The notes under the pieces were generated by a model. That model saw nothing but the letters and a program-made list of their open reading frames with translations, was not told the DNA's origin and did not search any database. The position numbers and the translations under genes were made by a program. A stretch of 64,000 nucleotides of DNA from Candidatus Polarisedimenticolia bacterium (GTDB lineage Bacteria; Acidobacteriota; Polarisedimenticolia; Gp22-AA2), in contig DASYUH010000013.1 in NCBI GenBank assembly GCA_036001465.1, positions 92,554-156,553 of the forward strand, written 5' to 3'. The stretch's first letter is position 1. Each line of letters starts with the position of its first letter. Positions 25,420-42,514 of the stretch are shown piece by piece.

Positions 25420-25674
25420 GGGTTGCGGCACAGTACGCCATGGTGCATCCAAATGCAATGGCGAATGCACGACGACCGTATGGATTTGGCGGTGCGCCAG
25501 GCACCGTAATCCGCGGGTCTAGCGCCCTGCGCTCCGCCCTCACGGTCTCGGCGGTGCGCGTTCTCAACATGCTGCTGTATCTCGTGTTCGCTCTCGGTGA
25601 CTTACTTCGGGACGAGCGTGCAGCGCGCGAGCATTTTATTGAGACACCTCGATCGGCACCCTTGAAATTCGGCT

Positions 25675-26355
25675 TTGAATGCTGACGTGACCAGGTCTGG
25701 AGGTGGCGATGAAGGCGACGAAGAAGGGCGCTTCCATGCAATGCGGAAAGATGCGCTCCGCCTGCTGTTCATGCGGCACGGGGCGCCTTTGGTGCTGAAG
25801 TCGGACAACGGCGCGTGCTTCACCTCGGCGGATGTCCGCTCTCCATGCGAACAGAACGGTGTGCTACAGTTGTTCACCGGAGGGCACCTCCGCCCACAAC
25901 GTCAGCGTCGAGGCCGGCATTGGGTCACTTCAGACACGCGCGCACTATGAATCAGCCCGGCACGGACGTCTTCTGGAATGGACCTGAGATGACTGGAGGC
26001 GATGCGCCTAAGCTACAAAACAGCCCATCCTCAGAGGCGCTTCGGCCCGACCCCGGAGCAGGCTTGGGCGTCGCACCCCGCTATCACCGCCGCCCAGCGT
26101 CATTGGTTCAGGGCCAGCCGTGTGCATCACGCCGAGCGCGAACGCGCCGACCGGAGCATCCCTCCCGGCCTCCAGTTCGGCCATCGGGCGCGGGCATTGA
26201 TCAACCGTTTCGTCGACAGGAAACAGCTGCGGCTCCGCTACGAGGCCTACTGTCGGCAACCGGCGCACAAAAGTTCCCTCTCCTTCAAATTCCGCGGACT
26301 GGCGCTGGAGATCTGGGCGCGACGATTCGAGTCTTGTCTGCGGCTCGGCGGATGA
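25675..26355 (+). pseudogene. Decayed DDE transposase/integrase-core (rve) remnant
   Basis: The frame at 25675-25950 encodes PLVLKSDNGACFTS...CEQNGV, which resembles the rve-core second-Asp region (hSDNGsqFts). The following frames carry possible C-terminal remnants. Multiple frame breaks. GC is visibly lower than the flanks. Confidence 0.35.
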
Positions 26356-27470: not shown

Positions 27471-29447
27471 ATGTGCGGCATTTTCGGAATTGTGGGAGAC
27501 CCGGTGCCTGCCGGGATCGATCGAGCCTGCGACGCCATGCGCCACCGCGGCCCCGACGACCGGGGCACCTACCTCGACGCCGGCGCCGGGCTGGGAATGA
27601 CCCGGCTGGCGATCCTCGACCTGTCCCGGGCCGGCCACCAGCCGATGGGCACCGAAGACGACTCCCTGTGGATCGTCCACAACGGCGAGGTCTACAACTT
27701 CGGGGAGGAGCGACGCCGGCTGGAGGCGAAGGGTCTACGATTCCGATCACACACGGACACCGAGGTGATCCTGCGCCTGTACGAAGAGCTGGGCCCGGCG
27801 TGCATCGATCGCCTGCGGGGGATGTTCGCTTTCGCGGTCTGGGATGCCCGGAATCGGCGCCTGTTTGCGGCACGGGACCGCCTGGGCATCAAGCCCCTTT
27901 ATTATGCGTGGGACAGCCACCGGCTCGTCTTCGCTTCCGAGCTGAAGGCCCTGCTGGCCAGTGGCCTGGTGGAGGGCCGCCTCTCCATGGAGGGGCTGGC
28001 GCTGTACCTGACCTTTGGCTACGTCCCCTCACCCTGCACGCTGATCGAAGGGGTGCAGGCGCTGCAGCCCGGGCATCACCTGACCCTGGAGAAGGGGCGC
28101 TTGACGGTGAGGCGCTACTGGGATCTGCCGACGGGCAGCGATCGGCACGCCTCGCGGTCGGCAGACGAGAGGGAGGCTGCCGCGGAACTCCGCGCCCTCC
28201 TGACGGAGAGCGTCCGCCTCCGGCTGATCAGCGACGTGCCGATTGGCGCCTTCTTGAGCGGGGGGATCGACTCGGCGGCCGTGGTCGCCCTCATGGCCGA
28301 GGCCCGCTCGGGGCCGGTCAAGACTTTCTCCATCGGCTTCGATGCCGACGGGAAAACCCTGGACGAGACCGACGACGCGGGCTTTCTCGCCAAGCACCTG
28401 GGAACCGACCACACGCGGCGCATCGTGACGGGCCGCGAGGTCGCCGACCTCGTCGATCGTCTCGGCCGGGCCCTCGACCAGCCGTCATTCGATGGAATCA
28501 ACAGCTATATCGTGTCGCAAGTGGCACGCACTGGCGTGACCGTGGCCCTGACGGGACTCGGAGGAGACGAGCTGTTCGCGGGCTACCCTCATTTCTGGCG
28601 TCTCCATTGGGAATACCGGAATGGAGGATGGCCGCACACGATCCAGAGGTCGATCAAGACGGCCCTCGCGGGGGCAGGCACCTTGATCCAGCCCTGGTTT
28701 CGGGGGACGCCTCTGGATCGGTATGCGGACTGGGCCCGCGTGCAGCACGGTTTCGTCACCCGCTACGGTCTATCTCACACCCTTTTCCCGCCGGCGCAAC
28801 AGCACGCCCTCTGCACCCCCGGATTGGCCGCATCGGCCCCGATCGGGCGGCTTGCCTCCGACTACCTGGGAGCCCTCGACGACCCGCGCGCCCATGATCT
28901 GATCGCGCGCGTCAGCCGCCTCGACCTCAAGGGGTACATGGCGCACCGGCTGCTGAGAGACATGGATGCCATGAGCATGGCCCACTCCCTCGAGGTGAGG
29001 GTGCCTCTCATCGACCATCGGCTCGTCGAGTTCGCCTACGCCCTGCCGGCTTCCTACAAGTATCAACCCGGGAGCGCCGCCCCGCCCGGCGGCGAACGGG
29101 AGGCCAGCTATCGTCAGTTGGGGGCGAAGAGGATTCTCATCGATTCGGTTCGGGATCTGCTGCCAGTCGGCTACGAGGACCGCCCCAAGACCGGATTCCA
29201 CCTTCCCATGGCCTCCTGGATGAAGAGCGACCTCCGACCCGCCGTGGACGACCTGCTGAGCCGGGAGTCCGTGCGGCGGCGAGGGCTGTTCCGCCCGGAG
29301 GCCGTTGCGCGGCTTTTGGCGGGGTTCCATGGAGGCGCGGTTCCGTGGCACCAGGTCTGGGCGCTCGCGGCGCTCGAGTTGTGGCAGCGCCAGGTTCTTT
29401 ACTCGGGCGCCGCCGCCCCGGCGGGCGACCAGCGGGCGACCGCGTGA
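27471..29447 (+). CDS. Asparagine-synthase-family glutamine amidotransferase, paralog 4
   Basis: Start set at the ATG at 27471 so the product begins MCGIFG. RGPDD, RLAILDL, GEVYNF, PP-loop SGGIDSA. Its TGA overlaps the GTG of the downstream GT4 (GTGA). Confidence 0.85.
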   Translation: MCGIFGIVGDPVPAGIDRACDAMRHRGPDDRGTYLDAGAGLGMTRLAILDLSRAGHQPMGTEDDSLWIVHNGEVYNFGEERRRLEAKGLRFRSHTDTEVILRLYEELGPACIDRLRGMFAFAVWDARNRRLFAARDRLGIKPLYYAWDSHRLVFASELKALLASGLVEGRLSMEGLALYLTFGYVPSPCTLIEGVQALQPGHHLTLEKGRLTVRRYWDLPTGSDRHASRSADEREAAAELRALLTESVRLRLISDVPIGAFLSGGIDSAAVVALMAEARSGPVKTFSIGFDADGKTLDETDDAGFLAKHLGTDHTRRIVTGREVADLVDRLGRALDQPSFDGINSYIVSQVARTGVTVALTGLGGDELFAGYPHFWRLHWEYRNGGWPHTIQRSIKTALAGAGTLIQPWFRGTPLDRYADWARVQHGFVTRYGLSHTLFPPAQQHALCTPGLAASAPIGRLASDYLGALDDPRAHDLIARVSRLDLKGYMAHRLLRDMDAMSMAHSLEVRVPLIDHRLVEFAYALPASYKYQPGSAAPPGGEREASYRQLGAKRILIDSVRDLLPVGYEDRPKTGFHLPMASWMKSDLRPAVDDLLSRESVRRRGLFRPEAVARLLAGFHGGAVPWHQVWALAALELWQRQVLYSGAAAPAGDQRATA

Positions 29448-30757
29448 GCCAGGGCACCCCCCTCTCCCTTATCTATCTACAAAACGGCAGCGGCACGGGA
29501 GGGGCCGGATTCAGCCTGGACGTCCTGCTGGCCCATCTGGACGCCGGCCGGTTCCGGCCGATCGTCTGGACCTGCGACGACGGACTCATGGTGCGGCGGT
29601 GGGAAGGGCGAGGGGCCCGGGTGGTGGTCCGCCGCATGCATCTCTTCGAGGGGCTCGACACGCACTTCGTGCAGGGCGCCATCGAACGCGATCCATCGGG
29701 ATGGCGCCGATCCAGCCTCCAGGCTCTCACGGCCGCCAGGGCTGCGGCCGCCCTGCCGGGCGAGATCGCCTTCCTGCGGCGCCTGCGGGCCCGTCAGGGG
29801 GTCGTCGTGCATGTGAACTCAATCGTCGCGTTGAGCGCGGGCCTTGCGGCTCGGCTCCTCGGCCTGCCGATCGTCTGGCATGTCCGCGAAATCCTCGCCC
29901 CGGGCGTCTGGGGGCGCATCGCCCGCCGGATCATCCTCTATTCGGCCTCCCGTATCGTCGCCGTGTCCGCTGCGGCCGCCGCCCCCTTTCAGGACGCGGG
30001 CGTTCCGGTGCAGGTCGTTCATAACGCGATCGAACTGAAGGCGTTCGATCCGTCCCTCGACGGCGCCCCCGTCCGCCGCGAGCTGGGTCTCCCCCCGGAC
30101 ACGCCCGTCGTCGGCTTCGTCGGGAGGCTGTTCCCGAGCAAGGGGACCTTCGATCTCCTACAGGCCATGTCAATCGTCTCCCGGGAGTTTCCCGGCGCTC
30201 ACCTCCTGATCGTGGGGGGGGACGATCCTCCGCAGGCCCACTCGTCAGGGGCGACCTGGAAAGGCAGGCTCCGCCGTCGTCTCGGTTTCGGGCAGGCGCC
30301 CGACTACCTGCCGCTCCTCCGGTCGGAGGCGGACCGTCTGGGCCTGGGGGACCGCGTCCATCTCCTCGGGCCGCGGCACGACACGCCCCGGCTCCTGGCG
30401 GCCATGGACGTCGTCGCGCTGCCGTCGCGCACGGAGGCGTTCGGCAGGACCATCATCGAGGCGATGGCCATGGCCAGGCCGGTCGTGTCCGTCGCCGTCG
30501 AGGGAATTCTCGATCTGATCCGGCACGACGAGAACGGGATCCTGATCCCGCCCCCCTCCCGGGTGGAGGATCTGGCCGTCGCCATCGCTGCGCTCCTCAA
30601 GGACCCGGGCCGCCGGGAGGCCCTGGGGCGGGAAGGTCGTCTATCCGTGGTCGATCGGTTCTCGGCGGAGCGTCACGCGCGGGCGATCATGGCCGTCTAC
30701 GAGGATCTGGCGGCCGGTCACATCGGACGCCAGGTCCAGATGCCGCGGGCGTATTGA
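29444..30757 (+). CDS. Glycosyltransferase family 4
   Basis: GTG at 29444 overlaps the paralog-4 stop. N-terminal domain SLIYLQNGSGTGGAGFS. C-terminal domain VHLLGPRHD...MDVVALPSRTEAFGRTIIEAMAMARPVVS. Confidence 0.8.
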   Translation: MSQGTPLSLIYLQNGSGTGGAGFSLDVLLAHLDAGRFRPIVWTCDDGLMVRRWEGRGARVVVRRMHLFEGLDTHFVQGAIERDPSGWRRSSLQALTAARAAAALPGEIAFLRRLRARQGVVVHVNSIVALSAGLAARLLGLPIVWHVREILAPGVWGRIARRIILYSASRIVAVSAAAAAPFQDAGVPVQVVHNAIELKAFDPSLDGAPVRRELGLPPDTPVVGFVGRLFPSKGTFDLLQAMSIVSREFPGAHLLIVGGDDPPQAHSSGATWKGRLRRRLGFGQAPDYLPLLRSEADRLGLGDRVHLLGPRHDTPRLLAAMDVVALPSRTEAFGRTIIEAMAMARPVVSVAVEGILDLIRHDENGILIPPPSRVEDLAVAIAALLKDPGRREALGREGRLSVVDRFSAERHARAIMAVYEDLAAGHIGRQVQMPRAY

Positions 30758-31656
30758 AACCGCAGGCGCAGGTCGCCGAGCGGCAGCGCCCCCAGGATCG
30801 ACTTGATCAGGCCGATGAGCACCGTGGCCGGGACGTCCACCACCTGGAGCGCGAGGCGGTAGAGTCGCGCAGGCCGGCGGCCGAAGCAGCGCTCGAGGTA
30901 GCGCTGAATACTGATGGCTCCGTTCACCAGTGTCCGGACCGGCGCCTGGCGGGCGCTCCGCCCTCCCAGGTGGGCAACCCTGGCTTCCGGCACGAAGTAG
31001 ATCTTCCATCCATCGCGGCGGATTCGGAAGCAGAGATCCAGGTCCTCGCCGCAGTGGATGAAGCATTCGCCGAACCCTCCCCCCTTCTCGAACAGGTCGC
31101 GGCGGAGCAGCATGGCGGCCCCCGAAATCGCCTGGACCTCCTGGACCACCTGGGGGTCGTAGGGTGAGACCAGCCGCTTCCTGAACCATGGTCCTACGAG
31201 AGGGAGCTTCTGGAGCCTGAACACGTCGATGGCCACGAGCCGCGCCGCGGTCGGCTGGACGCGGGCCGAGGTCTCCTGGAAGGTGCCGTCCTCGTTCCAC
31301 AGGGAGGGGCCCAGCATGCCCGCATCCGGGTGCTCCTGAAGGAAACGGATCAGGATCCCGAGGGCGCCCGGCATCACGATCGTATCCGGGTTCAGGAGCA
31401 GGACGAATCGTGCCGTCGCCAGGCGGAGGCCCAGGTTGCTCGCCCGGGCGAACCCCAGGTTGGCGCCGTTGACGATCACCTGGACCGATGGAAATTCGCC
31501 GCGCAGCATCGCGACGCTGTCGTCCGAGGACGCGTTGTCGACCACGATCAACTGCAGCGACAGGCTCGACGCGTCGGCGACCAGCGAGCGGATGCACTGC
31601 CGGAGGAGCGGCGCCACATTCCAGCTGACGATGATGACGGAGACGTCGGGGATCAT
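30718..31656 (-). CDS. Glycosyltransferase family 2
   Basis: 312 aa. VSVIIVSWN, VVDNASSDDS (DxD-type), LLLNPD, HCGEDLDLCFR. Convergent with the GT4 and overlaps it by about 40 nt. Confidence 0.8.
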   Translation of the reverse strand: MIPDVSVIIVSWNVAPLLRQCIRSLVADASSLSLQLIVVDNASSDDSVAMLRGEFPSVQVIVNGANLGFARASNLGLRLATARFVLLLNPDTIVMPGALGILIRFLQEHPDAGMLGPSLWNEDGTFQETSARVQPTAARLVAIDVFRLQKLPLVGPWFRKRLVSPYDPQVVQEVQAISGAAMLLRRDLFEKGGGFGECFIHCGEDLDLCFRIRRDGWKIYFVPEARVAHLGGRSARQAPVRTLVNGAISIQRYLERCFGRRPARLYRLALQVVDVPATVLIGLIKSILGALPLGDLRLRFQYARGIWTWRPM

Positions 31657-31668: not shown

Positions 31669-32628
31669 CTAGGTCGAGGGTCGAAGCACCGCGTGCCCGT
31701 ACTCGGGAATCGACGTCATCGGGCGGTGGGGAGGATCCAGCTCGCAAAGATCATAACCGACGCTCGCCAGGAAACCGCGCAGGGCCGCTTCGGTCGTGTC
31801 GAACAGCCGCCAAGCAAAGGAGTGCACCTCGAGGAAGATCCACGGACGGGCCGTCCGGAGCGTCTCGGCGGCGCCCTGCAGGGCCCAGAGCTCGGCCCCC
31901 TCCACGTCGATCTTCATGACTGAGGGCGGCGGCCCCCCGGCACGGACGAACTCGTCGAGCCGGATCGCGCAGATCGGCACCCAGGACGGTTGCGCGTCTT
32001 CCTGAGGATAGACGTTGCGCAACGCGTTGCCCGACGCCCAGGTCGTGGCGAGGGTCGGCCAGACGGGCATCGACACCACGCCGGCAGTGTTGGAGCAGGC
32101 TGCCTCCATGACCCGGATGCGATCGTCGAGGCCGTTCAGGGCGCAGTGTCGCCTGAGCAGACGGACCGTCTCGGGAACCGGTTCGAAGGCGACGACGCGC
32201 CCGTGCTCCTCCACGCGCCGGCAGGCGGCGATGGCGTACCAGCCGACGAAGCTGCCCACGTCATAGAACACGTGTCCCGGCTCGAGGTGCGCCAGCAGGG
32301 CGGCCAGCAGCCGATCGTCGCGCGGCACGGGGTAGCCGACCAGGAAATCGAAGTCCAGCCACAACGACTCCTCAACCGACGGCAGCTTGCAGCGGGCACG
32401 GCCGCGTCGCAGCGCGCGCTCCACGGCGAGGCTTGCCGCCTTGACGTTCCGGGCGCAGCGCCGTGCCGGCGCCTCGAGGGTTGAGCCTCGAATCCATGCG
32501 GGCATGGCCCAACGCGCGACCCATCCCGGACGGTTCATCGCTTCGTCACCTGGAACTCCCCGTTCCCTTTGCGCCCGGCGCGGAGCCTCAGCAACCCTCC
32601 GATGACCACGCGCGCATCGTCGATTCAC
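31669..32628 (-). CDS. FkbM-family methyltransferase
   Basis: Motifs FYDVGSFVGWY, VVAFEPVPE, MKIDVEGAEL. The 5' end is uncertain. The first 30-60 codons are R-rich and abut the flippase-fragment repeat. ATG candidates lie at about 32538 and 32502. Confidence 0.65.
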   Translation of the reverse strand: MNRRCARGHRRVAEAPRRAQRERGVPGDEAMNRPGWVARWAMPAWIRGSTLEAPARRCARNVKAASLAVERALRRGRARCKLPSVEESLWLDFDFLVGYPVPRDDRLLAALLAHLEPGHVFYDVGSFVGWYAIAACRRVEEHGRVVAFEPVPETVRLLRRHCALNGLDDRIRVMEAACSNTAGVVSMPVWPTLATTWASGNALRNVYPQEDAQPSWVPICAIRLDEFVRAGGPPPSVMKIDVEGAELWALQGAAETLRTARPWIFLEVHSFAWRLFDTTEAALRGFLASVGYDLCELDPPHRPMTSIPEYGHAVLRPST

Positions 32629-32867
32629 AGGCCGTGCAACTGGGCGGCGTAGATTCCAATCCCGAGAGTGCGCCCCGTCATGACCTGCACGATCCGCGGC
32701 CCCTCCCTTCCAAGCTCGGCTAGGCGCTCGAAAACGCCTGCCCAGGCCAGAAGGGGCACCCCCATGACGACGGCAGCCGCGAGGACCCTGGCGGCGAATA
32801 GGGTATCACCCGGGCCCCAAACTGTCCCGACCCCTCGGAGCACCAGGAGAAGCAGGATGAGGAGGAA
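32625..32867 (-). pseudogene. Duplicated 3'-end fragment of the MurJ/Wzx-like flippase gene (repeat copy A)
   Basis: Encodes ...LLILLLLVLRGVGTVWGPGDTLFAARVLAAAVVMGVPLLAWAGVFERLAELGREGPRIVQVMTGRTLGIGIYAAQLHGL*. This is about 65% identical to the C-terminus of the intact flippase at 35834-36077. It shares an exact 28-mer GCGGCGAATAGGGTATCACCCGGGCCCC (32791-32818 versus 36000-36027). Confidence 0.6.
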
Positions 32868-32879
32868 ACCACGCACGTA

Positions 32880-33108
32880 CGCCTCTCCCGAGGCTCTCGC
32901 GGATACCATCGTGTCCGTCATGAAGAATGACGCAAAACGTGCGGCAATCGGGCGCACTGCCCGCCATGCGGTGTTGCAGCGGTTCTACGCGGCGTATCGC
33001 GCGGATCGAATGATGGCCGTCGGCTCCGGCTCGAAGGCAGGCGTGACACCTGGGGGAACCGATCCTAGCCGCCTCAAAGCGCTCCTGAACCTTGGCTCAA
33101 ATCTCTGA
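32880..33108 (+). pseudogene. GT4 glycosyltransferase 3'-end fragment
   Basis: Encodes ...PEALADTIVSVMKNDAKRAAIGRTARHAVLQRFYAAYRADRMMAV, which parallels the C-terminus of the GT4 at 29444-30757 (VEDLAVAIAALLKDPGRREALGREGRLSVVDRFSAERHARAIMAV). No N-terminal domain is present. Confidence 0.35.
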
Positions 33109-34783
33109 CGAAGATGGAATACGCCCCGAACGTCGCCGAGTGACGATAGTTTCGCGTGAGATAGGCATCGAGTAGAGCCGCTCCCTCTTCCCGGTTGGCT
33201 GCGGTCGTCGACTCGGCATCGGCTCCCGACCAGAGAACGACGTACCGCACATCGCGTGCTGCAAGATCCTTCGCAATCTCACCCTGTACGCGCTCCGTGG
33301 TAGCGACGCCGGGGTGCAGCTCGTGATATCGGGTGGCGCTGTCCCTGTCCGCGAGAAAATAGAAGAGCACATCGTTTGTCTCGACCCTGCGGTGTGTCCA
33401 GAGTCCCACAAAGATACGCTCGCCCGGTCCCACGTGATCAACGATGTATCCGACAGCGGCCAATTCGTCCGGGTCGGCCACCGCGTACCCCAACCGACGC
33501 TCCGGCAAGGTCGACCAATCCCCGCTCCGCGGGAGAGCTTCCGTCGGAGGTCCCAGGATCACGCGTGCCTTGACGTAGACGGGCTCGACGAGCATGGGGA
33601 GTAACAGAACCAGCGCCGCGACTGCCGGCAGATAGGACGCCCCGCCGGAAGGTCGCTTCAGGATCCCCTGCCCCAGAGGCAGGAGGAGGAGCACGGGGAC
33701 GGAGAAGACAAGCAGATGAGGCAGGTCCGCTCGGACGAGTATTTGAGGAAACAGAGCTCCCGCGAGCAGCGTAAGGTGCAGGATTGTCCATCGTCGGGCC
33801 CGGTCGAGGGAGTCCTGAACGTGAGGTCGCCCCACAAGGAGCAACATGGACAGCACAAACACCAGCGGAACGACATAGTAGGGAAGGGCGGTCAGTGAGT
33901 ACGAGAGATACGAGCGAAGCGAGAGAGAACCATTGAGGAAGAGAGAGAGGCCCGGCGGACGAGGATACGGGAGGGCGCGCACGGAGGGAAATACATGGGC
34001 CGGGAAGATGATCAGATCCTCTATTACTTCCTTCAGAGGAACGGCTATCACGAGACAGAGTGCGACTGGGAGCACGATAATCGCAACCCCTAACACATAG
34101 AGGAGGATTCCCTGCATCCTGCTGGCAACCCGCGCCCATGAGCCCGACTCGGTGACAGTTCCGGTGGATGCCGAGAAAGTCAGGACAATCAGTCCTGCGA
34201 GGGACGCGTAGAATCCCACGTCATGACGGAATACTGCTGTAGCTCCGGCAGCCATACCTCCGAGAAGCAGTCTGAGCGGGCTCGTCGGATCGATGCTGTG
34301 GCGCTCGAGCAGCAGGACGGATGTCATGCTGAGAAGAAGGGCTATCAGCACGGAGGAGCCGAAGGGCGAGAACCTACCGAGCCAGACGGTCCCCACGAGC
34401 CAGCACAGGAGGGCTGTGCTCCGGGAGACGAAGGGCGCCGTGATTCTCCAGGCGAGCAGCACCAAGGATGAGCGGATGAGGATGTTCGAAACACGCTCCA
34501 CCAGGAGGGACGGCCCGAACAGCTTGAAGAGTGCCGCCAGGAGGTAGAACTGGCCGGGCGGGTACATCGTCCACCAGTCCCGGTAAGGGAGTTCTCCTCT
34601 CAACACCCTGAGGGCCCCGTAGACGATGACACCTTCGTCATACGGATTGGCGTGGAGGGTCACATCGGGAAGAAAGTAAAGCACCGAAAGTATCGCCAGC
34701 GATGGATAGAGCCACGCCTCATTCAGGGGCTGCCTCCACCTCCGGGTGCGTTCCAGCCGTAGATCCACCAGGCGCGCCTCCAC
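33074..34783 (-). CDS. GT-C-fold glycosyltransferase, ArnT/PMT-like (family 39/83-like)
   Basis: 569 aa. First periplasmic loop YDEGVIVYGALRVLRGELPYRDWWTMYPPGQFYLLAALFKLFG is the ArnT/PMT DE-motif region. 10 or more TM helices, then a C-terminal soluble domain. GC about 58-60%. Confidence 0.65.
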   Translation of the reverse strand: MEARLVDLRLERTRRWRQPLNEAWLYPSLAILSVLYFLPDVTLHANPYDEGVIVYGALRVLRGELPYRDWWTMYPPGQFYLLAALFKLFGPSLLVERVSNILIRSSLVLLAWRITAPFVSRSTALLCWLVGTVWLGRFSPFGSSVLIALLLSMTSVLLLERHSIDPTSPLRLLLGGMAAGATAVFRHDVGFYASLAGLIVLTFSASTGTVTESGSWARVASRMQGILLYVLGVAIIVLPVALCLVIAVPLKEVIEDLIIFPAHVFPSVRALPYPRPPGLSLFLNGSLSLRSYLSYSLTALPYYVVPLVFVLSMLLLVGRPHVQDSLDRARRWTILHLTLLAGALFPQILVRADLPHLLVFSVPVLLLLPLGQGILKRPSGGASYLPAVAALVLLLPMLVEPVYVKARVILGPPTEALPRSGDWSTLPERRLGYAVADPDELAAVGYIVDHVGPGERIFVGLWTHRRVETNDVLFYFLADRDSATRYHELHPGVATTERVQGEIAKDLAARDVRYVVLWSGADAESTTAANREEGAALLDAYLTRNYRHSATFGAYSIFVRDLSQGSGAL

Positions 34784-34853
34784 AGCCTCGGTAGGTCAAT
34801 CTTCCTGCTTCTAAACCCGATCGCTGGTCCTTCGAGCGTTCGGTCTGGGTCGT

Positions 34854-35420
34854 TTACCCTCGACAGCCATTCCTGCGGAGCACCACCGTGCCCTTTTCAC
34901 TCGGGATGCGTTCGACATCGAGGGCGACGAATTCGTGCAGCCAGCGACCAAGGACGATCGCCTCGTCTTCGCGACTCCCATCGTCGAGGACGACCACGGC
35001 GCCCGGACTCAGTGTCTCGACGATCAGGGGAAGCGCCGGATACCGAACCAACCTGCGCGCCTGTCCATGCTGGAGGGGGCCATCCACGATCAGCACGTCG
35101 ATCGGAGCGAACTTCGCCAGAGCCGTGGTGTCATACCATTCCCAGGTCCGCGGTCCCAGCGCCACGGACCGGAGCGGGGCGTGGACAACCCTCGCGACAT
35201 CCGCGAGTCCGTGATCCTCCAGGTACTCCGTCGGCAGCCTCGCGTAGCGCTCCTCCTGCTCGAGCGACAGGATTCGACCCTGGCCCACCTCCCTGAGACA
35301 GGAGGCGGCAATCAGCGTGGACACACCGCTGCCCGCTTCCACGATCAGGCCAGGTCTGTGCCGGCGGATCAGGGTGACCAGGTTGGTTGCAAAGTCCGGA
35401 GAGATGGCGGCGGCTCTCAT
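34854..35420 (-). CDS. Class I SAM-dependent methyltransferase (Methyltransf_24 / TylF-MycF-like)
   Basis: 188 aa. LIVEAGSGVSTL (motif I). VLIVDGP...VVVLDD. Confidence 0.6.
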   Translation of the reverse strand: MRAAAISPDFATNLVTLIRRHRPGLIVEAGSGVSTLIAASCLREVGQGRILSLEQEERYARLPTEYLEDHGLADVARVVHAPLRSVALGPRTWEWYDTTALAKFAPIDVLIVDGPLQHGQARRLVRYPALPLIVETLSPGAVVVLDDGSREDEAIVLGRWLHEFVALDVERIPSEKGTVVLRRNGCRG

Positions 35421-35764
35421 GGGCGGCAGTGGGTGGGTGGATCTTCAGGGACACGAAAAGCGACGGGAGCGCTTCCATCTGACGGTAATTCGCCGTGGGG
35501 TTGGTCGCGCTGTTCAGCACGATGCTCTGGATCCGACGGTAGATTTCAATCTGGGTTGTCAGGATGATGATCAGGGCGAACACGATGGAGCACTCAAGGG
35601 ACCAGTCTGGAACCAACCACCGCGTGAGGGACGAGCCGACGATGACGAGCAGGAGAAGGCCGACAATGCAGACGACGTCTTTCCTCGAAAGGCTCATCGG
35701 ATCGGTCCTTCCTTCGCAGTCGCAGCGGGCATGGATCTCGAGGCTCGGAACGAGGAGAACACGT

Positions 35765-37348
35765 TCATGGCCGCCGAACCAAACCGGTGGCGGACGAGAG
35801 GACCCGCGCCAAAATGTCACGCGCCTCATCGACGCGCAGAAGGTGCAGAAGGGCGAGATAGGTTCCAACTCCGAGCGCGAGTCCCGACATGACCTGAATG
35901 ATCCGCGGCCCCTCTTTCCCCAGATCAGCGAGGTTCCCGAAAAACCCTGCCCACACCAGAAGGACCGCCCCCATGATGGTGGCGGACACGAGAACCCTCG
36001 CGGCGAATAGGGTATCACCCGGGCCCCGGATCGCCCCGACCTCCCGGCGCACCAGGGGAATGAGGACGAGGAGGGAGACGAGCGACACGGCGGTCGTGGC
36101 GAGGGCTATTCCGGCAAGGCCGAACGGCTTGACCAGGAGTGAATTCAATACGGCATTCGCCGCAATGGCGCCCGCAGAGGACCAGGCGAGCGCGGCGAGA
36201 CAGCGCCGCGCGAACAGAACTCGAGCCAGGATGACCTGATGGCCCATGAAAAGGATTTCGGGTGCATAACAGGCGATGAGCCGCGCCACCATCGCGGTCG
36301 ATTCGGGAGGGAATGCGCCCCGCTCGAAGAGGAGGCGCGCCAGCGGGGTGCCGAACGTCAGGGCTCCGGCACACAAGGGCGCGGTCAGGATGAGCATGTG
36401 ACGCTGGCTCGACCGGAGGATCCCGGCGAGCTCCCCCCGGCCAGCCTGCGCCGCGGCCGCCAGTCGCGGGAAGACGACCTCGGCGAGAGAGAGGGACGTC
36501 AGCAATTCCGCGTTGGAGATGATGACGAAGGCGAACCCCAGAGTCGTGATGCTGCCGGACGGCAGGAAGGACGCGAAGGCATTGTCCACCAGGAGATTGA
36601 TCGTTCCGGTGTTCGCGGCGAGGCTCATCGGCAGGAACGCGACCCAGAAGTCCCGCCGGTGCTCCGCGTGCAAGCCTCCGGCTTCCGCCTGGGGGGAGAA
36701 TCCCGCAGGGTCGCGGAGCATTCGGGCGGCGGCCAGTGAGAGCAGCCCGACCGCGATGACCGCGCCCAGGAGCGATCCGAGCGGCAGGGCGAAAATCCCC
36801 AGCCGGCCTACCAGGAGAACCAAGACGATCACGGACACCAGGTTGATCAGGACGTGCGTGAGGTTCGATACCCCGAAGCGGCCACGGACCTCGAACAGGC
36901 AGCGCGTCACCGTGAAGTAGACGCCTCCGGCCAGCCCGAAAATTGAGATGCGCAGCAGGCTGGCGCTCAGCGCGGCACGGTCGGGTGTGAACCCCGGTGC
37001 AATCAAGGCGGTGAAGTGGCGCGCTCCGGCGAGAACGACCAAAATGCACGGGGTGAGCCACAGCGTCACCTGCCAGAGAGTCCGGCGGGCGAAGCGTTTC
37101 TGTCCTGAAATCCCGTCCCGACGACCAACCGCAGCCAGCGAGACGAGCAGATTGCCGTACAGGCCGCCCATCAGGAACGTGGAGATGAGGTTGGGGATAG
37201 TCTGGGCCACCAGGTAACAGTCCTTCGCCACGCTGGTCCCGAAATAGGTCGCCGAGAGCATCCCGAGGGCCAGCGCGAGACCGGCGTTCGTCAGGCGGCA
37301 CGCCGAAACGACAAGAGTGGCGCGGAACGCGCTGGCGTTCTGGCTCAC
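35765..37348 (-). CDS. MurJ/MviN-family (MOP superfamily) flippase, Wzx-like
   Basis: 527 aa with 12-14 TM helices. N-terminal region YFGTSVAKDCYLVAQTIPNLISTFLMGG matches the MurJ family pattern. The C-terminal 80 aa are duplicated at 32625-32867. Confidence 0.8.
   Translation of the reverse strand: MSQNASAFRATLVVSACRLTNAGLALALGMLSATYFGTSVAKDCYLVAQTIPNLISTFLMGGLYGNLLVSLAAVGRRDGISGQKRFARRTLWQVTLWLTPCILVVLAGARHFTALIAPGFTPDRAALSASLLRISIFGLAGGVYFTVTRCLFEVRGRFGVSNLTHVLINLVSVIVLVLLVGRLGIFALPLGSLLGAVIAVGLLSLAAARMLRDPAGFSPQAEAGGLHAEHRRDFWVAFLPMSLAANTGTINLLVDNAFASFLPSGSITTLGFAFVIISNAELLTSLSLAEVVFPRLAAAAQAGRGELAGILRSSQRHMLILTAPLCAGALTFGTPLARLLFERGAFPPESTAMVARLIACYAPEILFMGHQVILARVLFARRCLAALAWSSAGAIAANAVLNSLLVKPFGLAGIALATTAVSLVSLLVLIPLVRREVGAIRGPGDTLFAARVLVSATIMGAVLLVWAGFFGNLADLGKEGPRIIQVMSGLALGVGTYLALLHLLRVDEARDILARVLSSATGLVRRP
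35834..36077 (-). repeat. Repeat copy B (live 3' end of the flippase gene), direct repeat of 32625-32867
   Basis: See copy A. The two copies bracket a lower-GC segment of about 3 kb. Confidence 0.6.
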
Positions 37349-37961: not shown

Positions 37962-39110
37962 ATGTCGATGAAGGGTCTGACCGGCAACCTGAAAACCATG
38001 TCCCTCCCGGACCTTCTTCAGTGGGCCGGGGCCGGCCGAAAGACCGGGACGCTCGCCCTGAAGAGCGGCCCACTTCACAAGAAAATCTATTTCCAGGACG
38101 GGGCGATCATCGGATCGTCCAGCGACGACAGCCGGGAATACCTCGGTCAGTTCATGCTCAGCGAGGGGATCATTACCGAGCAGCAGCTCAAAGACGCCTT
38201 CGACCTGCAGTCGCAGACCAAGGTCATGCTGGGGCGAATCCTGGTCAAGAAGGGCCTCGTGTCGGAAGCCAAGGTCGGCGAGGTTCTGCGACTGAAGGCC
38301 GAGGAAACGATCTACTCGCTCTTCCTGTGGATGGAAGCCGATTTCGAATTCCTGGAGGCCGAGCTTCCGCCGGGGGACCAGGTGCTGATCTCCATCAAAG
38401 TCGAAGACGTGCTGATGGAGGGGCTGCGACGCTACGACACCTCGAAGAAGATCCGCCAGGTCCTGCCGCACAACGGGGTCGTGCTGCGCCGCTGTCCCAG
38501 GCCGCTTCCGTCCGACATCGCCGCGAAGAAGTTCCCGCGGCGGATCTACGACCTGGTGGACGGCCGGAGAACGCTGGCCCAGATCGTCCTCGAGGCGCAC
38601 GCCTCCGAGTACAACGTCTGCCAGGTGCTCTTCGTCATGGTCCAGAAGAAGTTCCTGGAAATCGTCCAGGCGGAGTCCGTGGCGCCGTCTCCCGCCCGTC
38701 CACCTGCCGACAGCCCGCAGGCGCTGATGGATGCGGCCAAGGAGCTCATCAAGAGCGGCGATTCGGAAGGAGCGCTGGTGATCCTGGAAAAGGCGCGCAA
38801 GAGCGCGGGCAAGAACCCCGAGATGAACGCCTTGATTCAGGTCGCCGAGGAGCACTTCATCGACAAGGCCTACCGCCACTACCTGCCGCCCAAGAAGATC
38901 CCCGTTCTGAAGAAGCCGCTGGAATCGCTGATGAGCCAGGATCTCAGCCCGGAGGAGGGCTTCCTGGTCAGCCGGGTCAACGGCTCCTGGGATCTGCGGT
39001 CGATCATCAGCATCTCGCCGTTGCGCGAAGTGGACGCGCTGCGCGCCTTCAAGAAGCTGCGCGAGCGCGGCATCCTCGACCTGATCGACGCTCAGGCCAG
39101 GACGGCCTGA
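37962..39110 (+). CDS. DUF4388 domain-containing protein
   Basis: 382 aa. N-terminus GNLKTMSLPDLLQWAGAGRKTGTLAL...IYFQDGAIIGSSSD is the DUF4388 signature. K/E-rich, GC about 60%. 3' end overlaps carB convergently by about 19 nt. Confidence 0.75.
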   Translation: MSMKGLTGNLKTMSLPDLLQWAGAGRKTGTLALKSGPLHKKIYFQDGAIIGSSSDDSREYLGQFMLSEGIITEQQLKDAFDLQSQTKVMLGRILVKKGLVSEAKVGEVLRLKAEETIYSLFLWMEADFEFLEAELPPGDQVLISIKVEDVLMEGLRRYDTSKKIRQVLPHNGVVLRRCPRPLPSDIAAKKFPRRIYDLVDGRRTLAQIVLEAHASEYNVCQVLFVMVQKKFLEIVQAESVAPSPARPPADSPQALMDAAKELIKSGDSEGALVILEKARKSAGKNPEMNALIQVAEEHFIDKAYRHYLPPKKIPVLKKPLESLMSQDLSPEEGFLVSRVNGSWDLRSIISISPLREVDALRAFKKLRERGILDLIDAQARTA

Positions 39111-42100
39111 GCCTCCGGCCCGACGCGGATCCGCCGGCGACCGGGCTTCCGTCCCACGGCCAGGGGGCTCGGGCCGTCGCGACCCGCGCCCGATTCCCCC
39201 TCGCGCGCGGCCTCCCGGGCGAACGCCGGCCCCCGGCTCTCCCCCGCTCCGCTCCGACTCCATCCCGCGGCGGGGGCCACGTAGTGATCGTACGGCTCAA
39301 TTTTCAAGTCGTCCCATTTCGTGCTCGCGATCGACTTCACGAACAGCTCGGCCAGCTGGAGGTTGGTGAACAGCGGAATCCCCACGTCGGTGGCCCGGCG
39401 GCGGATGATGTAGCCGTCGGTCAGCTCCTTCCGGTCGTAGCCGGCAGGCACGTTGATGATCAGGTCCAGCCGGTTCGGCGTGATGTAGTCGAGAAGGGAG
39501 GGCTTGCGCCGCTCGTGGATCTTGTAGAGCCGCACGTTCGGAACGCCGTTGTCCTCCAGGAAGCGCGAGGTGTAACGCGTCGCGTAAAGCGTGAAGCCCA
39601 AGTCGTGGAGGGCGCGGGCCGAGGGCAGGAAGCGCGTCTTGTCCCGCAGCGACCCGATCGTCAGGAGCACCTGCTTGCGTGTCGGGGGCTTGAAACCGGC
39701 GGCCAGGATCGCTTTCAGGAAGGCGTCCGGAAGGTCATGCCCCAGGCAGGCCACCTCCCCGGTCGAGGCCATCTCGACCCGCAGCGCCGGGTCCGCCCCC
39801 TTGATGCGCGAGAACGAGAACTGCGGCGCCTTCACGCCGATGTGATCGAGGTCGAGGAGCGAGGCCGGCATAGGGCGCACTTCGGCTCCCATCATGGCCC
39901 GGGTCGCCAGGTCCACGAAATCGACGCCGCTCACCTTGGAGATGAACGGGAACGAGCGCGAGGCGCGCAGGTTGCATTCGATGACCATGACCTGGTTGTC
40001 CACCGCCAGGAACTGGACGTTGAACGGCCCGGTGATTCTCAAGCCCCGGGCCAGCTCGGCGGTGATCGACCGGATGCGCCGCACCGTCTCGAGGTAGATC
40101 TTCTGGGGCGGCAGGACCACGGTGGCGTCCCCCGAGTGGACACCGGCGTTCTCCACGTGCTCCGTCACCGCGACCGCCAGGACCCTTCCCCGCACTGCCA
40201 CCGCGTCCGCTTCCAGCTCTTTGGCGCCCTCCACGAATTTTGAAAGCACCACCGGGTGCCGGCGCGACACCTCCTCCGCCCCCTTCAAGGCGGCCGCGAG
40301 CCCCGCACCGTCCGAGGCGATGCGCATCGCGGCGCCGGACAGGACATAGGACGGGCGGACCAGGACCGGAAAGCCGACGCGGGCGGCGAAACGCAGCGCC
40401 TCGCGGCGCGAGGTCACCTCGGCCCAGGCCGGTTGTGGCACGCCGAGCCGATCCAGAAGCGAGGAAAACTTGTGGCGATCTTCGGCCCGGTCGATGTCCT
40501 CCGGCCGGGTGCCGAACACCCGGATTCCGGCCGCGGCGCACGCCAGGGCGTGGTTGTTCGGAATCTGTCCCCCGAACGCCAGCAGGACCCCGAGGGGCCT
40601 CTCCTTCAGGTAGATGTCGTGGATGCGCTCGAAGGTCAGCTCCTCGAAGTAGAGGGTGTGCCCCATGTCGTAGTCGGTGGAGACCGTCTCCGGATTGCAG
40701 TTGATCACGATCGGCGAGTAGCCGAGGCGGCGCAGCGCCTCGGTGGCCGACACGCAGCACCAGTCGAACTCGACCGACGAGCCGATGCGATAGGCCCCCG
40801 ACCCCAGGACCAGGACCTTCCGTTCTCCGTCGGCCGGGACCAGGTCGTCCTCGGTCCCGTGGTAAGTTGTGTACAGGTAGTTCGTCTTCACCGGCCACTC
40901 GGCGGCGAGCGTGTCGATCTGCTTCACCACCGGGACGACGCCGGCAGCCGCGCGGCGCCGCGCCACCGCTGCGGCGGAGCGCCCAGTGAACGCGGCAATC
41001 TGCTCGTCGGCGAAGCCGGCCTCCTTGACCAGTCGCAGCAGTGCCGCGGGGAGGGGGCCGCGCCCGCCCCGGCGGCGACCGGCGGCCCCGAGGACGCCGC
41101 GCAGCGCCACGATCCGCTTCATCTTCTCGAGGAACCAGGGGTCGATCCCCGTCCGGGCATGCAGCTCGGAGACGGGCCGGCCGCGCGCCAGGGACTCCGC
41201 CAGGGCGAAGACGCGGCGCGGCGTCGGCTGCGAGACGTCCCGGAGCGACTGGCGGATGTTGAAGTCGTTGCCCACCAGACCCTGGATGCCGTCGCCCAGC
41301 ATCCGGCAGCCCTTCTGCAGCGCCTCTTCGAAGCTGCGGCCGATCGCCATCACCTCTCCGACCGATTTCATTTCGCTGCCGATGAAGTGGGAGGCGCCCT
41401 GGAACTTCTCCAGGTCCCATTTCGGCATCTTGACCACCATGTAGTCGAGGGCCGGCTCGAAGCAGGCGGTCGTGGTGTCGTTCATCGAGTTCTTCAGATC
41501 CGGCAGGAGGTGCCCGAGAGCCAGCTTGGCGGCGATGCGGGCGAGCGGGTAGCCGGTCGCCTTGCTCGCCAGGGCGGACGACCGGGACAGCCGGGCGTTC
41601 ACCTCGATGACGCGATAGCGGTTCGAGCGCGGGTCGAGGGCGAACTGGATGTTGCATTCGCCGACGATCCCGAAGTGGCGGATCACCTTGAACGCCAGCG
41701 CGCGCAGGAAGAAGTACTCCTCGTCGGTCAGGGTCTGCGACGGCGCCACCACGATCGACTCGCCGGTATGCACGCCGAGCGGGTCGACGTTTTCCATGTT
41801 GCACACCGTGATGCAGTTGTCGGCCGCGTCGCGCACGACTTCGTACTCGACCTCCTTCCACCCCGTCAGGTCCTCCTCGACCAGCACCTGGGGGGAAGTG
41901 GTGAACGCCTCCGCGGCCATGCGCCTGAGCTCGCCTTCGCTCCGGGCGATGCCCGAACCGCGCCCGCCCAGCGTGAAGGCGGTGCGCATCATGACCGGGT
42001 ACCCGATGCGCCGCGACTCGGCCAGCGCCCCGGACACGTCGCGGGCGGCGCCGCTGCGCGGCACGTCGACGCCGATCGAGCGCAGCTCGCGCGCGAACCG

Positions 42101-42514
42101 GGCACGGTCTTCGGTCTTCTCGATCGCCGCGATCGGCGTGCCCAGGACCCGCACGCCGTGCCTTCGCAGCACCCCTTCCCGGTGCAGGGCCAGCCCGCAG
42201 TTGAGCGCCGTCTGGCCTCCGAACGACAGGAGGATGCCGTCGGGCTTCCCGCGGGCGATCACCCGGGACACGAAGTGCGGGGTGACGGGCAGCAGGAAGA
42301 TCCGGTCGGCGAGCCCCGGGGAAGTCTGGATCGTGGCGATGTTCGGGTTGACCAGCCAGACCTCGACCCCCTCCTCCTTGAGCGCCTTGATCGCCTGCGA
42401 TCCGGAGTAGTCGAACTCCCCGGCCTCGCCGATCTTGAGCGCCCCGGAGCCCAGGACGAGGACGCGCGTCGGATGGTCGCGGTGCGCGCGCCGCCGCTCC
42501 GTCGGGCGCTTCAC
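39092..42514 (-). CDS. carB: Carbamoyl-phosphate synthase large subunit
   Basis: Two ATP-grasp halves (RVLVLGSGALKIGEAGEFDYSGSQAIKALKEEG... and KVLVLGSGAYRIGSSVEFDWCCVSA...), an oligomerisation domain and an MGS-like C-terminus. GTG start at 42514 overlaps the carA TGA (GTGA). There is a C-terminal extension of about 70 aa past IEPYDHYV. The ORF-track 5' extension to 43642 lies in the carA antisense-shifted frame and is spurious. Confidence 0.9.
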   Translation of the reverse strand: MKRPTERRRAHRDHPTRVLVLGSGALKIGEAGEFDYSGSQAIKALKEEGVEVWLVNPNIATIQTSPGLADRIFLLPVTPHFVSRVIARGKPDGILLSFGGQTALNCGLALHREGVLRRHGVRVLGTPIAAIEKTEDRARFARELRSIGVDVPRSGAARDVSGALAESRRIGYPVMMRTAFTLGGRGSGIARSEGELRRMAAEAFTTSPQVLVEEDLTGWKEVEYEVVRDAADNCITVCNMENVDPLGVHTGESIVVAPSQTLTDEEYFFLRALAFKVIRHFGIVGECNIQFALDPRSNRYRVIEVNARLSRSSALASKATGYPLARIAAKLALGHLLPDLKNSMNDTTTACFEPALDYMVVKMPKWDLEKFQGASHFIGSEMKSVGEVMAIGRSFEEALQKGCRMLGDGIQGLVGNDFNIRQSLRDVSQPTPRRVFALAESLARGRPVSELHARTGIDPWFLEKMKRIVALRGVLGAAGRRRGGRGPLPAALLRLVKEAGFADEQIAAFTGRSAAAVARRRAAAGVVPVVKQIDTLAAEWPVKTNYLYTTYHGTEDDLVPADGERKVLVLGSGAYRIGSSVEFDWCCVSATEALRRLGYSPIVINCNPETVSTDYDMGHTLYFEELTFERIHDIYLKERPLGVLLAFGGQIPNNHALACAAAGIRVFGTRPEDIDRAEDRHKFSSLLDRLGVPQPAWAEVTSRREALRFAARVGFPVLVRPSYVLSGAAMRIASDGAGLAAALKGAEEVSRRHPVVLSKFVEGAKELEADAVAVRGRVLAVAVTEHVENAGVHSGDATVVLPPQKIYLETVRRIRSITAELARGLRITGPFNVQFLAVDNQVMVIECNLRASRSFPFISKVSGVDFVDLATRAMMGAEVRPMPASLLDLDHIGVKAPQFSFSRIKGADPALRVEMASTGEVACLGHDLPDAFLKAILAAGFKPPTRKQVLLTIGSLRDKTRFLPSARALHDLGFTLYATRYTSRFLEDNGVPNVRLYKIHERRKPSLLDYITPNRLDLIINVPAGYDRKELTDGYIIRRRATDVGIPLFTNLQLAELFVKSIASTKWDDLKIEPYDHYVAPAAGWSRSGAGESRGPAFAREAAREGESGAGRDGPSPLAVGRKPGRRRIRVGPEAQAVLA

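Follow-up and report, generated by a model that had tools for sequence, protein, structure and literature searches.

The window analysed here, 64,000 nt of a contig of Candidatus Polarisedimenticolia bacterium, carries an intact gene for a MurJ-family flippase and, downstream on the same strand, a second copy of the 3′ end of such a gene (Table 1). The two copies (32611–32865 and 35820–36074, minus strand) form a direct repeat of 255 nt each, 76% identical and spaced 3209 nt apart, bearing out the repeat that a sequence-only reading of this DNA had described, including its longest exact run of 28 nt. Their core agrees at 184/243 positions, and the most similar 100-nt segment shows 81% identity, close to the approximately 80% over approximately 100 bp given by that reading. 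At the protein level, 49/77 residues (64%) are identical (BLASTP E = 3e-29). The intact flippase, referred to as MurJ_A, scores 199.6 bits against TIGR01695, under the cut-off of 235.55, and is 64–78% identical to its counterparts in relatives.

Table 1 Features of the flippase locus, with positions in the window.
Feature	Position	Strand	Remarks
GT2 glycosyltransferase	30718..31656	-	PF00535
FkbM-family methyltransferase, first gene of B-type cassette	31669..32538	-	PF05050, TIGR01444
3′-end relic of second, B-type MurJ	32535..32867	-	~81 core + 29 tail codons
Non-homologous junction where truncated 5′ sides of GT4 and MurJ relics meet	32866..32878	.	
GT4 glycosyltransferase 3′-end relic, ~75 codons	32872..33108	+	convergent with GT-C gene
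Glycosyltransferase of GT-C fold (569 aa), seemingly intact	33074..34783	-	
Membrane-anchored Methyltransf_24 gene	34854..35697	-	split by +1 frameshift at ~35431–35442
A-type tail and stop of intact MurJ	35765..35819	-	type common to relatives with MurJ then Methyltransf_24
Intact MurJ-family flippase gene (MurJ_A), 527 aa	35765..37348	-	PF03023, 182 bits (cut-off 27.4)
Right repeat copy, last two transmembrane segments	35820..36074	-	~MurJ codons 425–509

The left copy is a truncated pseudogene, a dead and apparently displaced 3′ terminus of an alternative flippase gene. The sequence-only reading had ended it at 32625, the last base of an in-frame premature TGA (32627–32625), but 29 further codons homologous to the MurJ of relatives follow, down to the original TGA at 32537–32535. 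This stop codon overlaps the ATG of the FkbM gene, and the resulting ATGA is the ancestral arrangement, kept in the left copy as in the related locus L003. Alignment with L002 is continuous across 32865–32400 (blastn, 80.7% identity), and damaging changes are not clearly over-represented in the core of the relic. At the other side the junction is sharp: MurJ homology stops at approximately 32865–32870 and homology to a GT4 glycosyltransferase begins at approximately 32872–32878, the two relics adjoining 5′-to-5′. The second relic is a GT4-family C-terminus (Glyco_trans_1_2, 22.7 bits, below the Pfam cut-off of 25; E = 1e-4), and the GT4 proteins of L003 and L007 match it in tblastn searches (1.3e-6). 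Such a fragment had been recognized before, but its kinship with the GT4 gene at 29444 amounts to 39% identity over 51 aa (BLASTP 5e-7), and it is not a recent copy of that neighbour. A degraded rve fragment is present approximately 7 kb from the junction.

The 3.2-kb block between the copies has a GC content of 61.9%, against 68–69% in the flanks; the 58–60% reported earlier holds for parts of it only. Of the genes previously assigned to the block, the GT-C glycosyltransferase and the Methyltransf_24 methyltransferase were confirmed, whereas the separate small membrane ORF (35697–35431) proved to be the 5′ part of the methyltransferase gene, the 3′ part of which spans 35435–34854 (ORF 35420–34854). 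Compared with L006, the split corresponds to a 1-nt insertion in CCACCCACCCAC. In L006, L008 and L009, the gene is a single 279-aa ORF whose tblastn matches in the window fall in two frames, and homologues of 277–297 aa cover 97–100% of the repaired window sequence; L001 and L094 carry the identical frameshift. The 569-aa glycosyltransferase itself has no Pfam match, its homologues match PF13231 (PMT_2) above the cut-off, and structure modelling confirmed the predicted GT-C fold (AlphaFold, pLDDT 86.8, pTM 0.89), the top 26 PDB matches of the model all being GT-C enzymes, including ArnT, STT3, DPY19, AftA and EmbB. Neither this gene, whose nearest non-self homologue is only 37% identical, nor the GT4 stub has a close homologue; their GC3 is 0.69–0.71 (0.71 for GT-C) against 0.82–0.89 in the flanks, and the GT-C gene looks foreign.

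Public data hold few close relatives. Relatives lacking the block, a comparison proposed in the sequence-only reading, do exist: in L002, L003/L004 and L007, a full-length MurJ gene is followed directly by FkbM-GT2-GT4-AsnB (L002 without GT2), and blastn alignments of these loci to the window run along MurJ down to 35820 and resume at 32865 through FkbM. In the A-type relatives L006, L008 and L009, MurJ is instead followed directly by a membrane-anchored Methyltransf_24 gene, as at the intact copy in the window. The PatA_N-MurJ-Methyltransf_24 side of the window is collinear with its closest relative, L008 (37349–34871, 79.7%), and likewise with L006 and L009; after Methyltransf_24 comes an AsnB-like gene in L008 and a GT2 gene in L009. 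A relative resembling the donor, in which GT-C and a convergent GT4 come after Methyltransf_24, was not found.

Homology between the versions of the locus ends near MurJ codon 505, beyond which the copies carry different tails, the last approximately 20 codons being of two unrelated types. The left (B-type) tail shares 76% identity with L002 and L003 and the right (A-type) tail 67–77% with L008, L006 and L009, with cross-type identity of 39–47% (43–47% for the right tail against the left copy, L002 and L003); at codons 506–527, 16/17 informative sites match L008. Codons 1–505 are equidistant from both cassette types and contain no detectable recombination breakpoint, so a chimeric MurJ was not demonstrated. 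The copies did not arise by duplication upon integration, since their mutual core identity (76%) matches that of the copies to orthologues of other species (66–78%) and their tails are unrelated. Judged from the sequences compared, tail type sorts with the downstream gene, A with Methyltransf_24 and B with FkbM, and the association of the intact gene's tail with Methyltransf_24 in L006, L008 and L009 fits the earlier suggestion that an inserted module brings a replacement 3′ end. Because the copies carry one tail of each kind, the window stacks two alternative cassettes in series: MurJ with tail A, the frameshifted Methyltransf_24, GT-C, the GT4 3′ stub and the last approximately 110 codons of a B-type MurJ, and then FkbM-GT2-GT4-AsnB. 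The FkbM protein is 85% identical to that of L002, 81% to L003 and 76% to L007. For GT2, which in some relatives sits after FkbM or after Methyltransf_24, the values are 71% (L003), 70% (L007), 73% (L009) and 75% (L092). Another relic in the window is a MurJ N-terminal stub at 25506–25641.

The repeat is an evolutionary recombination scar, not a working device or a genetic switch. On/off variation of a glycan modification, as proposed earlier, would require homologous recombination between the copies to excise the block, and a crossover between these direct repeats, which do include a 28-nt identical stretch, would indeed recreate the MurJ-FkbM order of L002 and L003. However, no exact run is longer than that, and recombination at this level of divergence (76% identity) happens orders of magnitude less often than when repeats are identical. 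The recombinant gene would also inherit the premature TGA of the relic, and the methyltransferase of the block is already frameshifted, indicating that the block is decaying and not maintained as a switchable unit. Two sequencing runs yielded the insert-bearing form alone (SRR11742962, 100% identical over 12.9 kb; SRR11742948, 2 mismatches in 14.9 kb), and the excised form was not found; we therefore regard a switch as highly unlikely. The likelihood of a metagenome assembly chimera of A-type and B-type strains is practically nil, even though the source of the window is a metagenome-assembled genome and both locus types exist in related organisms: the two runs independently assembled the identical structure, identical proteins are on record from JGI and NCBI, and joining via the shared MurJ would yield one hybrid MurJ, not a junction of GT4 and MurJ stubs without shared sequence. 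A mobile island inserted site-specifically into the flippase 3′ end, with the repeats as attL and attR, would explain why the 3′ end of the target gene recurs in direct orientation on either side of a lower-GC block while the gene itself stays intact, as with islands and prophages that integrate at, and restore, 3′ ends. Yet no gene for an integrase, recombinase, transposase or excisionase lies in the block, no att-like identical repeats or notable terminal inverted repeats were found at it, and the whole window is free of tRNA genes, which makes site-specific integration unlikely. Moreover, the repeats are long, 24% diverged and differently tailed, unlike att sites; on its left the block terminates in a truncated GT4 gene and not in the end of an element; and L006, L008 and L009 have the MurJ tail with Methyltransf_24 as a normal part of the chromosome. 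The earlier idea of integration into the flippase 3′ end is partly supported, by the block-free relatives and by the replacement 3′ end, but an island of this kind is extremely improbable.

The best explanation, which we consider probable, is a scar left by one-step homology-facilitated illegitimate recombination (HFIR). A single event would be the most economical origin: one crossover would have been homologous, within or upstream of MurJ, and the other end would have joined illegitimately at codon ~425 of a resident B-type MurJ. The outcome would be a 'C-terminal displacement', with the old 3′ end and the genes behind it pushed downstream. The stub later acquired a nonsense codon and now forms a non-coding spacer. 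We infer co-transcription here, the stub probably lying inside what is still one transcription unit. With regard to direction, an A-type resident and a newly arrived B-type block would fit at least as well, given the match to L008. A longer history, possible but on balance doubtful, starts from tandem modules, MurJ_A-Methyltransf_24-GT-C with a divergent GT4 and then MurJ_B-FkbM-GT2 onward, from which one later deletion, spanning the 5′ portions of GT4 and MurJ_B that faced each other, took out the redundant second flippase and left the 3′ stubs. Adjoining 5′-to-5′ stubs are exactly what deletion across two divergently transcribed genes would equally be expected to produce; tandem modules with their own MurJ, one of them decaying (split at codon ~141), are seen in L092 and L093; and the N-terminal MurJ stub and the frameshifted methyltransferase are similar relics in the window. 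This history needs at least two events, module acquisition and then deletion, against one for HFIR, and the two MurJ genes of L092, at 48% identity, are paralogues and do not form an A/B pair. The sequence-only reading had named full-length paralogous flippases in relatives as the contrary outcome, and no relative was found in which the A and B copies are both full-length genes.

Loci for rhs, CDI and T6SS effectors are known to show C-terminal displacement, which orphans 3′ fragments (Kirchberger et al. 2017, PMC5361080) and has been attributed to HFIR (PMC5361080, citing Jackson et al. 2009). As in those loci, a conserved 5′ gene body would serve here as the homologous anchor, the variable 3′ end would arrive with partner genes, the old 3′ end and downstream genes would be pushed downstream with a stub kept, and the far-side junction is non-homologous. 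Unlike those toxins, the gene product here is a flippase of the MurJ family that acts on lipid-linked glycans, and the gene lies within a polysaccharide locus; the displaced FkbM and GT2 genes appear undamaged and probably remain in use, and there is one displaced stub, not an array, with a mechanism that we infer. Experiments in Acinetobacter, Streptococcus pneumoniae, Pseudomonas stutzeri and E. coli have demonstrated HFIR (PMC3240628; references in PMC5361080), with one end homologous, the other illegitimate and foreign DNA inserted beside the anchor, as proposed here, although our event was pieced together from one genome and a few relatives. Salmonella O-antigen clusters of groups B1 and D1 retain wzy remnants, and that of group D2 is a D1/E recombinant (PMC3715488). 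Like enterobacterial O-antigen loci, the present locus is a mosaic surface-glycan cluster whose blocks have different relatives, with non-functional fragments of processing genes at block junctions and functionally equivalent alternative genes at the same position in different clusters; it differs in belonging to an uncultured acidobacterium, in having a MurJ-type flippase rather than Wzx and in having no IS or H-repeat at the junction of the GT4 and MurJ relics. The scar is of a known kind, one that polysaccharide loci and cases of C-terminal displacement also show, and the MurJ-family gene marks the conserved edge of a variable locus for glycan synthesis in this Candidatus Polarisedimenticolia (Acidobacteriota) clade.

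A repeat search of the 30-38 kb part of the window returned, as its largest direct repeat and far above chance, the pair 32611-32865 and 35820-36074 (255 nt, 76% identity, spacing 3209), bearing out the direct repeat of the flippase 3′ end that the sequence-only reading had described. The two copies aligned without gaps across the core, with 28 nt as the longest exact run and 81% identity in the best 100-nt window, and their minus-strand translations were identical at 49 of 77 residues (BLASTP E = 3e-29). The minus strand carries all relevant genes. The block between the copies was correctly seen as lower in GC, at 61.9% rather than the 58-60% first put forward, the flanks having 68-69%. In composition, GC3 deviated most, at 0.71 in the GT-C gene and 0.69 in the GT4 stub against 0.82-0.89 in the flanking genes. 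One source record names the host Candidatus Polarisedimenticolia, within Acidobacteriota.

Genes and gene remnants around the two flippase 3′ ends
Feature	Coordinates	Strand	Basis or remark
MurJ-family gene (MurJ_A), intact, 527 aa	37348-35765	-	PF03023, 182 bits
Methyltransf_24 gene, membrane-anchored	35697-34854	-	split by frameshift
Membrane protein, 569 aa, GT-C fold	34783-33074	-	predicted structure
GT4 glycosyltransferase stub, last ~75 codons	about 32872-33108	+	sub-threshold but consistent matches
MurJ relic, last ~110 codons	32867-32535	-	homology to MurJ
FkbM methyltransferase	32538-31669	-	downstream of MurJ relic
GT2	31656-30718	-	downstream of FkbM
GT4, convergent	29444-30757	convergent with GT2	beyond GT2
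Asparagine-synthase-like amidotransferase (AsnB)	27471-29447		after GT4

For every MurJ gene available, we aligned the 3′ end at the nucleotide level and compared the left copy, the right copy and the genes on contigs L002, L003, L006, L008 and L009 of relatives. Within the 243-nt core, identity was 70-78% for all pairs of the two copies, L008, L002, L006 and L009 (left copy to right copy 76%, left copy to L002 78%) and 66-70% for pairs with L003; over this core neither copy is closer to the other than to the orthologues of other organisms. In-situ duplication was rejected as their origin, as they are as diverged as orthologues. The 95 nt after the core fell into two unrelated tail types, with identities of 67-77% inside a type and 39-47% across types, the tail of the left copy going with L002 and L003 (76%) and that of the right copy with L008, L006 and L009 (67-77%), and the protein alignment agreed with the nucleotide alignment on this division. 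Across codons 506-527, 16 of the 17 informative sites had the L008 state (permutation p = 0.007).

In the left copy, an in-frame TGA at 32627-32625 is followed by IDDARVVIGGLLRLRAGRKGNGEFQVTKR, which matches the L003 tail IEEARVVIGRFLRPRAVRQENGEDQGETR, and the final TGA overlaps the FkbM ATG (ATGA), as it does in L003. Because of this tail match and shared overlap, the left copy is the original 3′ end of a second, B-type MurJ, with its FkbM partner still attached. It is truncated at codon ~425 and bears a nonsense mutation, and it was called a pseudogene on these two grounds, the pN/pS ratio and invariant-residue violations over 81 codons having given no clear signal of decay or age. The tail of the right copy, VDEARDILARVLSSATGLVRRP, matches homologous proteins P0002, P0003 and P0005 as well as L008, and this copy is the 3′ end native to an A-type MurJ, joined to its Methyltransf_24 partner. 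By these alignments the new 3′ end differs in type from the displaced end and belongs with the new downstream genes.

A MurJ protein search yielded relatives at 64-78% identity, whose contigs have two layouts. In the B-type layout, MurJ is followed directly by FkbM (L002, 75%; L003/L004, 70%; L007, 64%) and, beyond it, by GT2, a convergent GT4 and AsnB, with GT2 missing from L002; in the A-type layout it is followed directly by a 279-aa Methyltransf_24 protein (L006, 74%; L008, 78%; L009, 72%). The view of the 3.2-kb block as an added module is matched by relatives that do without it, as L002, L003/L004 and L007 have the left-hand gene order of the window. At the DNA level, L008 aligned continuously with 37349-34871 at 79.7%, and L002 aligned with 37361-35820 at 79.5% and then, unbroken, with 32865-32400 at 80.7%, showing the displaced fragment to be contiguous with FkbM; the 255-nt overlap of L002 matches both repeat copies. 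For 34870-32868, which holds the GT-C gene and the GT4 stub, DNA alignment found no counterpart in any relative. In L009, the same GT2 (73%) comes after Methyltransf_24 as after FkbM in the window and the B-type loci, and therefore both methyltransferases occupy one slot. No extra MurJ fragments were found in the loci of the relatives. A scan of genome contigs with the MurJ alignment gave a best match of 50% identity and no close relatives, and a scan of metagenome contigs with the FkbM alignment gave two weak loci only. L005, another contig on which a Methyltransf_24 gene follows MurJ, was rejected as a donor-like relative, that gene being unrelated at the BLAST level to the one in the window.

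Nearly every relative has the locus rearranged. The glycan block of the window lies between thiolase/acyl-CoA dehydrogenase and PatA_N/carB genes (18066-20466 and 37962-43642), likewise in L003, relative to which it is inverted (L005 was also compared); the PatA_N-MurJ adjacency is common to L008 and the window. On two further contigs, L092 and L093, two MurJ genes lie in tandem modules on one contig (L092 104-7493). The second MurJ of L092 (70% identical to the window MurJ) is split near codon 141 into ORFs of 153 and 380 aa, a split also seen in a second sample, and a 79-codon 5′ GT2 fragment at 3733-3981 is 81% identical to the window GT2. Between MurJ and GT2 of L092 (7561-7644), only 27 codons of Methyltransf_24 are left, in frame, which correspond to the initial 21 and the final 6 of the L009 gene; this is a second, independent loss of Methyltransf_24.

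At the left end of the block, MurJ homology stops at about 32865-32870 and GT4 homology starts at about 32872-32878 on the opposite strand, so that the two stubs meet at their truncated 5′ sides within about 10 nt (32866-32878). This far junction, which joins unrelated genes on opposite strands with no shared sequence, is non-homologous. Searches of the block for an integrase, a transposase or notable terminal inverted repeats found none, nor was any tRNA or tmRNA found in the whole window; family matches in the block came from two ORFs only, Methyltransf_24 and the GT4 stub, and the GT-C protein was assigned by its fold. Instead of short, (near-)identical repeats of att type, the block is flanked by copies of 255 nt at 76% identity whose longest exact run is 28 nt. 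Site-specific integration of an island or prophage at an att-type site was rejected, there being no integrase or recombinase in the block and the repeats being long and diverged. An assembly chimera was also considered as the source of the structure and rejected, because independent assemblies of two runs agree on it.

The sequences that the sequence-only reading had listed as a small membrane ORF and a methyltransferase are both present, but they are one gene in relatives rather than two. L006, L008 and L009 encode one 279-aa protein whose N- and C-terminal parts match the window in two frames, and comparison with L006 located one extra base in a CCACCCACCCAC tract of the window at about 35431-35442 (minus strand), a +1 frameshift that separates the 5′ membrane portion of Methyltransf_24 from a 3′ portion of 188 aa. 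The repaired protein had 39 homologues, most of 270-300 aa, covering most of its length; its Methyltransf_24 domain scored 44 bits (cut-off 26.3), and an intact frame of family length (277-297 aa) was not found. The frameshift was present, in identical sequence, in the Logan assemblies of two different runs, and the gene is probably inactive. Databases annotate the 188-aa part as a complete methyltransferase.

The 569-aa protein next to it had no Pfam or NCBIfam match, and its nearest homologue in a protein database of about 5.8 billion sequences was 37% identical; its homologues (36-37% identity) match PF13231 PMT_2 above the cut-off. Its predicted structure (pLDDT 86.8, pTM 0.89) had only GT-C proteins among its top 26 PDB matches, with STT3, DPY19, AftA, AglB, ArnT and EmbB among them, and TM-scores of 0.56 and 0.58 to ArnT (5f15). 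The first outer loop contains a conserved acidic motif, D49 and E50 being the same in all of 30 homologues. The model identifies this 'hypothetical protein' as a putative GT-C enzyme, which would add a sugar at the outer face from a polyprenyl-phosphate donor because this is a general property of GT-C enzymes. The GT4 stub scored 22.7 bits for Glyco_trans_1_2, below the 25-bit cut-off, and it matched the GT4 at 29444 (BLASTP, 5e-7) and the GT4 proteins of L003 and L007 (tblastn, 1.3e-6).

The intact MurJ_A matched PF03023 over its full length (residues 33-469) at 182.2 bits against a gathering score of 27.4, and we infer that it is the flippase in use. Because its score for the lipid II flippase equivalog TIGR01695 (199.6 bits) was below the curated cut-off of 235.55, its substrate may be either lipid II or another lipid-linked glycan. 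FkbM and GT2 are intact and lie on the same strand as the GT-C gene, 535 nt downstream. A sequence scan of 32300-36100 found no promoter or terminator above shuffled expectation, and since no terminator signal above chance lies between the GT-C gene and FkbM, read-through transcription into FkbM and GT2 is likely.

Taking the possible routes together, we consider it highly probable that two alternative cassettes, an A-type one (tail A and Methyltransf_24) and a B-type one (tail B and FkbM), ended up stacked, with a displaced and now dead 3′ end of a flippase gene as the remnant. This could have happened in a single event, in which a homologous crossover in or upstream of MurJ would be accompanied by illegitimate joining to the other MurJ at codon ~425, that is, homology-facilitated illegitimate recombination resulting in C-terminal displacement. 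Alternatively, in at least two events, two complete modules would have come to lie in tandem, an arrangement that occurs in the group on L092 and L093, and both the divergent GT4 and the second MurJ would later have lost their facing 5′ parts through a deletion. The data fit both routes, with side A or side B as the resident alike, and the sequence comparisons could not discriminate between them; we prefer the single event on grounds of parsimony. If MurJ combined a resident 5′ part with an imported 3′ end, it should contain a breakpoint, but a search of codons 1-505 by sliding amino-acid identity and max-chi-square (on informative sites against L008, L006, L002 and L003) detected none: informative sites there split roughly 50/50 between L008 and L002, and the last ~20 codons alone discriminate. 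MurJ neighbour-joining trees were weakly discordant (bootstrap 69% and 55%), and the PatA_N-MurJ-Methyltransf_24 side of the window is collinear with its closest relative, L008. A drop in GC3 (0.75 in the right copy, 0.83 in codons 1-425) was rejected as a marker of import because most relatives drop likewise in the last 102 codons.

The sequence-only reading had also proposed an on/off switch, in which the block would be lost by crossing-over between the two copies. When MurJ and FkbM were looked up as exact proteins in the assemblies of two sequencing runs, the insert-bearing form alone was recovered, 100% identical across 12.9 kb in SRR11742962 and, in SRR11742948, with 2 mismatches over 14.9 kb. 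Moreover, the copies differ at 24% of positions and share no identical run longer than 28 bases, the recombinant gene would stop at the nonsense codon of the relic, and the methyltransferase inside the block is already broken; the switch was thus not borne out, and excision may at most be rare.

Other remnants lie nearby. On the plus strand at 25506-25641, an internally frameshifted stub preserves ~47 codons from the start of a different type of MurJ. Its identity to the N-terminal ends of P0040 and P0030, members of a paralogue group at 48-50%, is 63-70%, and the stub is a second flippase relic of the locus. Next to it, at about 25700-26100 (+), lies a decayed fragment, interrupted by in-frame stops, that contains the motif LVLKSDNGACFTS and looks like the C-terminal portion of an rve (DDE integrase/transposase) core; its Pfam rve match (E = 5.7e-4) misses the cut-off. 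The position of this fragment beside the MurJ N-terminal stub suggests past IS activity in the locus. Four asparagine-synthase-like amidotransferase paralogues occur within 17 kb (12895-14814, 21641-23482, 23491-25470 and 27471-29447); their identity to the orthologues that the fourth copy has in L003/L007 is 34-38%, and they resemble XrtA/PEP-CTERM-system amidotransferases, scoring below the cut-off of that model. The gene at 37962-39110 (+) encodes a PatA_N-domain protein whose c-di-GMP-binding motif is MshE-like (NF053729, 52.9 bits, cut-off 38). This neighbour of the locus is conserved in L003, L005, L006 and L008, and the protein could regulate the locus.

Displaced 3′ ends and C-terminal displacement like the flippase scar of the window are known from rhs, CDI and T6SS loci (PMC5361080; PMC3240628), and the same pattern of gene remnants and hybrid clusters from Salmonella O-antigen loci (PMC3715488). 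The kind of event is already known; what is new here is the taxon and a MurJ-family flippase as the anchor. A wider proposal, which we regard as possible but doubtful, is that the MurJ 3′ end near codon 505 serves throughout the clade as a recurrent exchange point for cassettes of glycan-modification genes. New tails with methyltransferase or glycosyltransferase cassettes would be stacked ahead of the old, as in C-terminal displacement at toxin loci, and the old cassettes would decay, as the stub and frameshifted methyltransferase of the window and the 27-codon remnant of L092 may illustrate. If this were true, flippase genes would be an unrecognised anchor for the diversification of surface glycans in uncultured bacteria of soil and sediment.

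For annotation, the 110-codon and 83-codon ORFs can be recorded as relics and the 188-aa methyltransferase as a fragment. The locus offers neither a new mechanism nor a switch but a small, clean case of displacement-type recombination beyond toxin loci, in which outgroup evidence shows how, in an acidobacterial lineage about which little is known, recombination rebuilds a locus for surface glycans. The conserved flippase gene forms the border of the variable region, alternative methyltransferase cassettes share one slot across genomes and, where they are stacked, the redundant parts decay.
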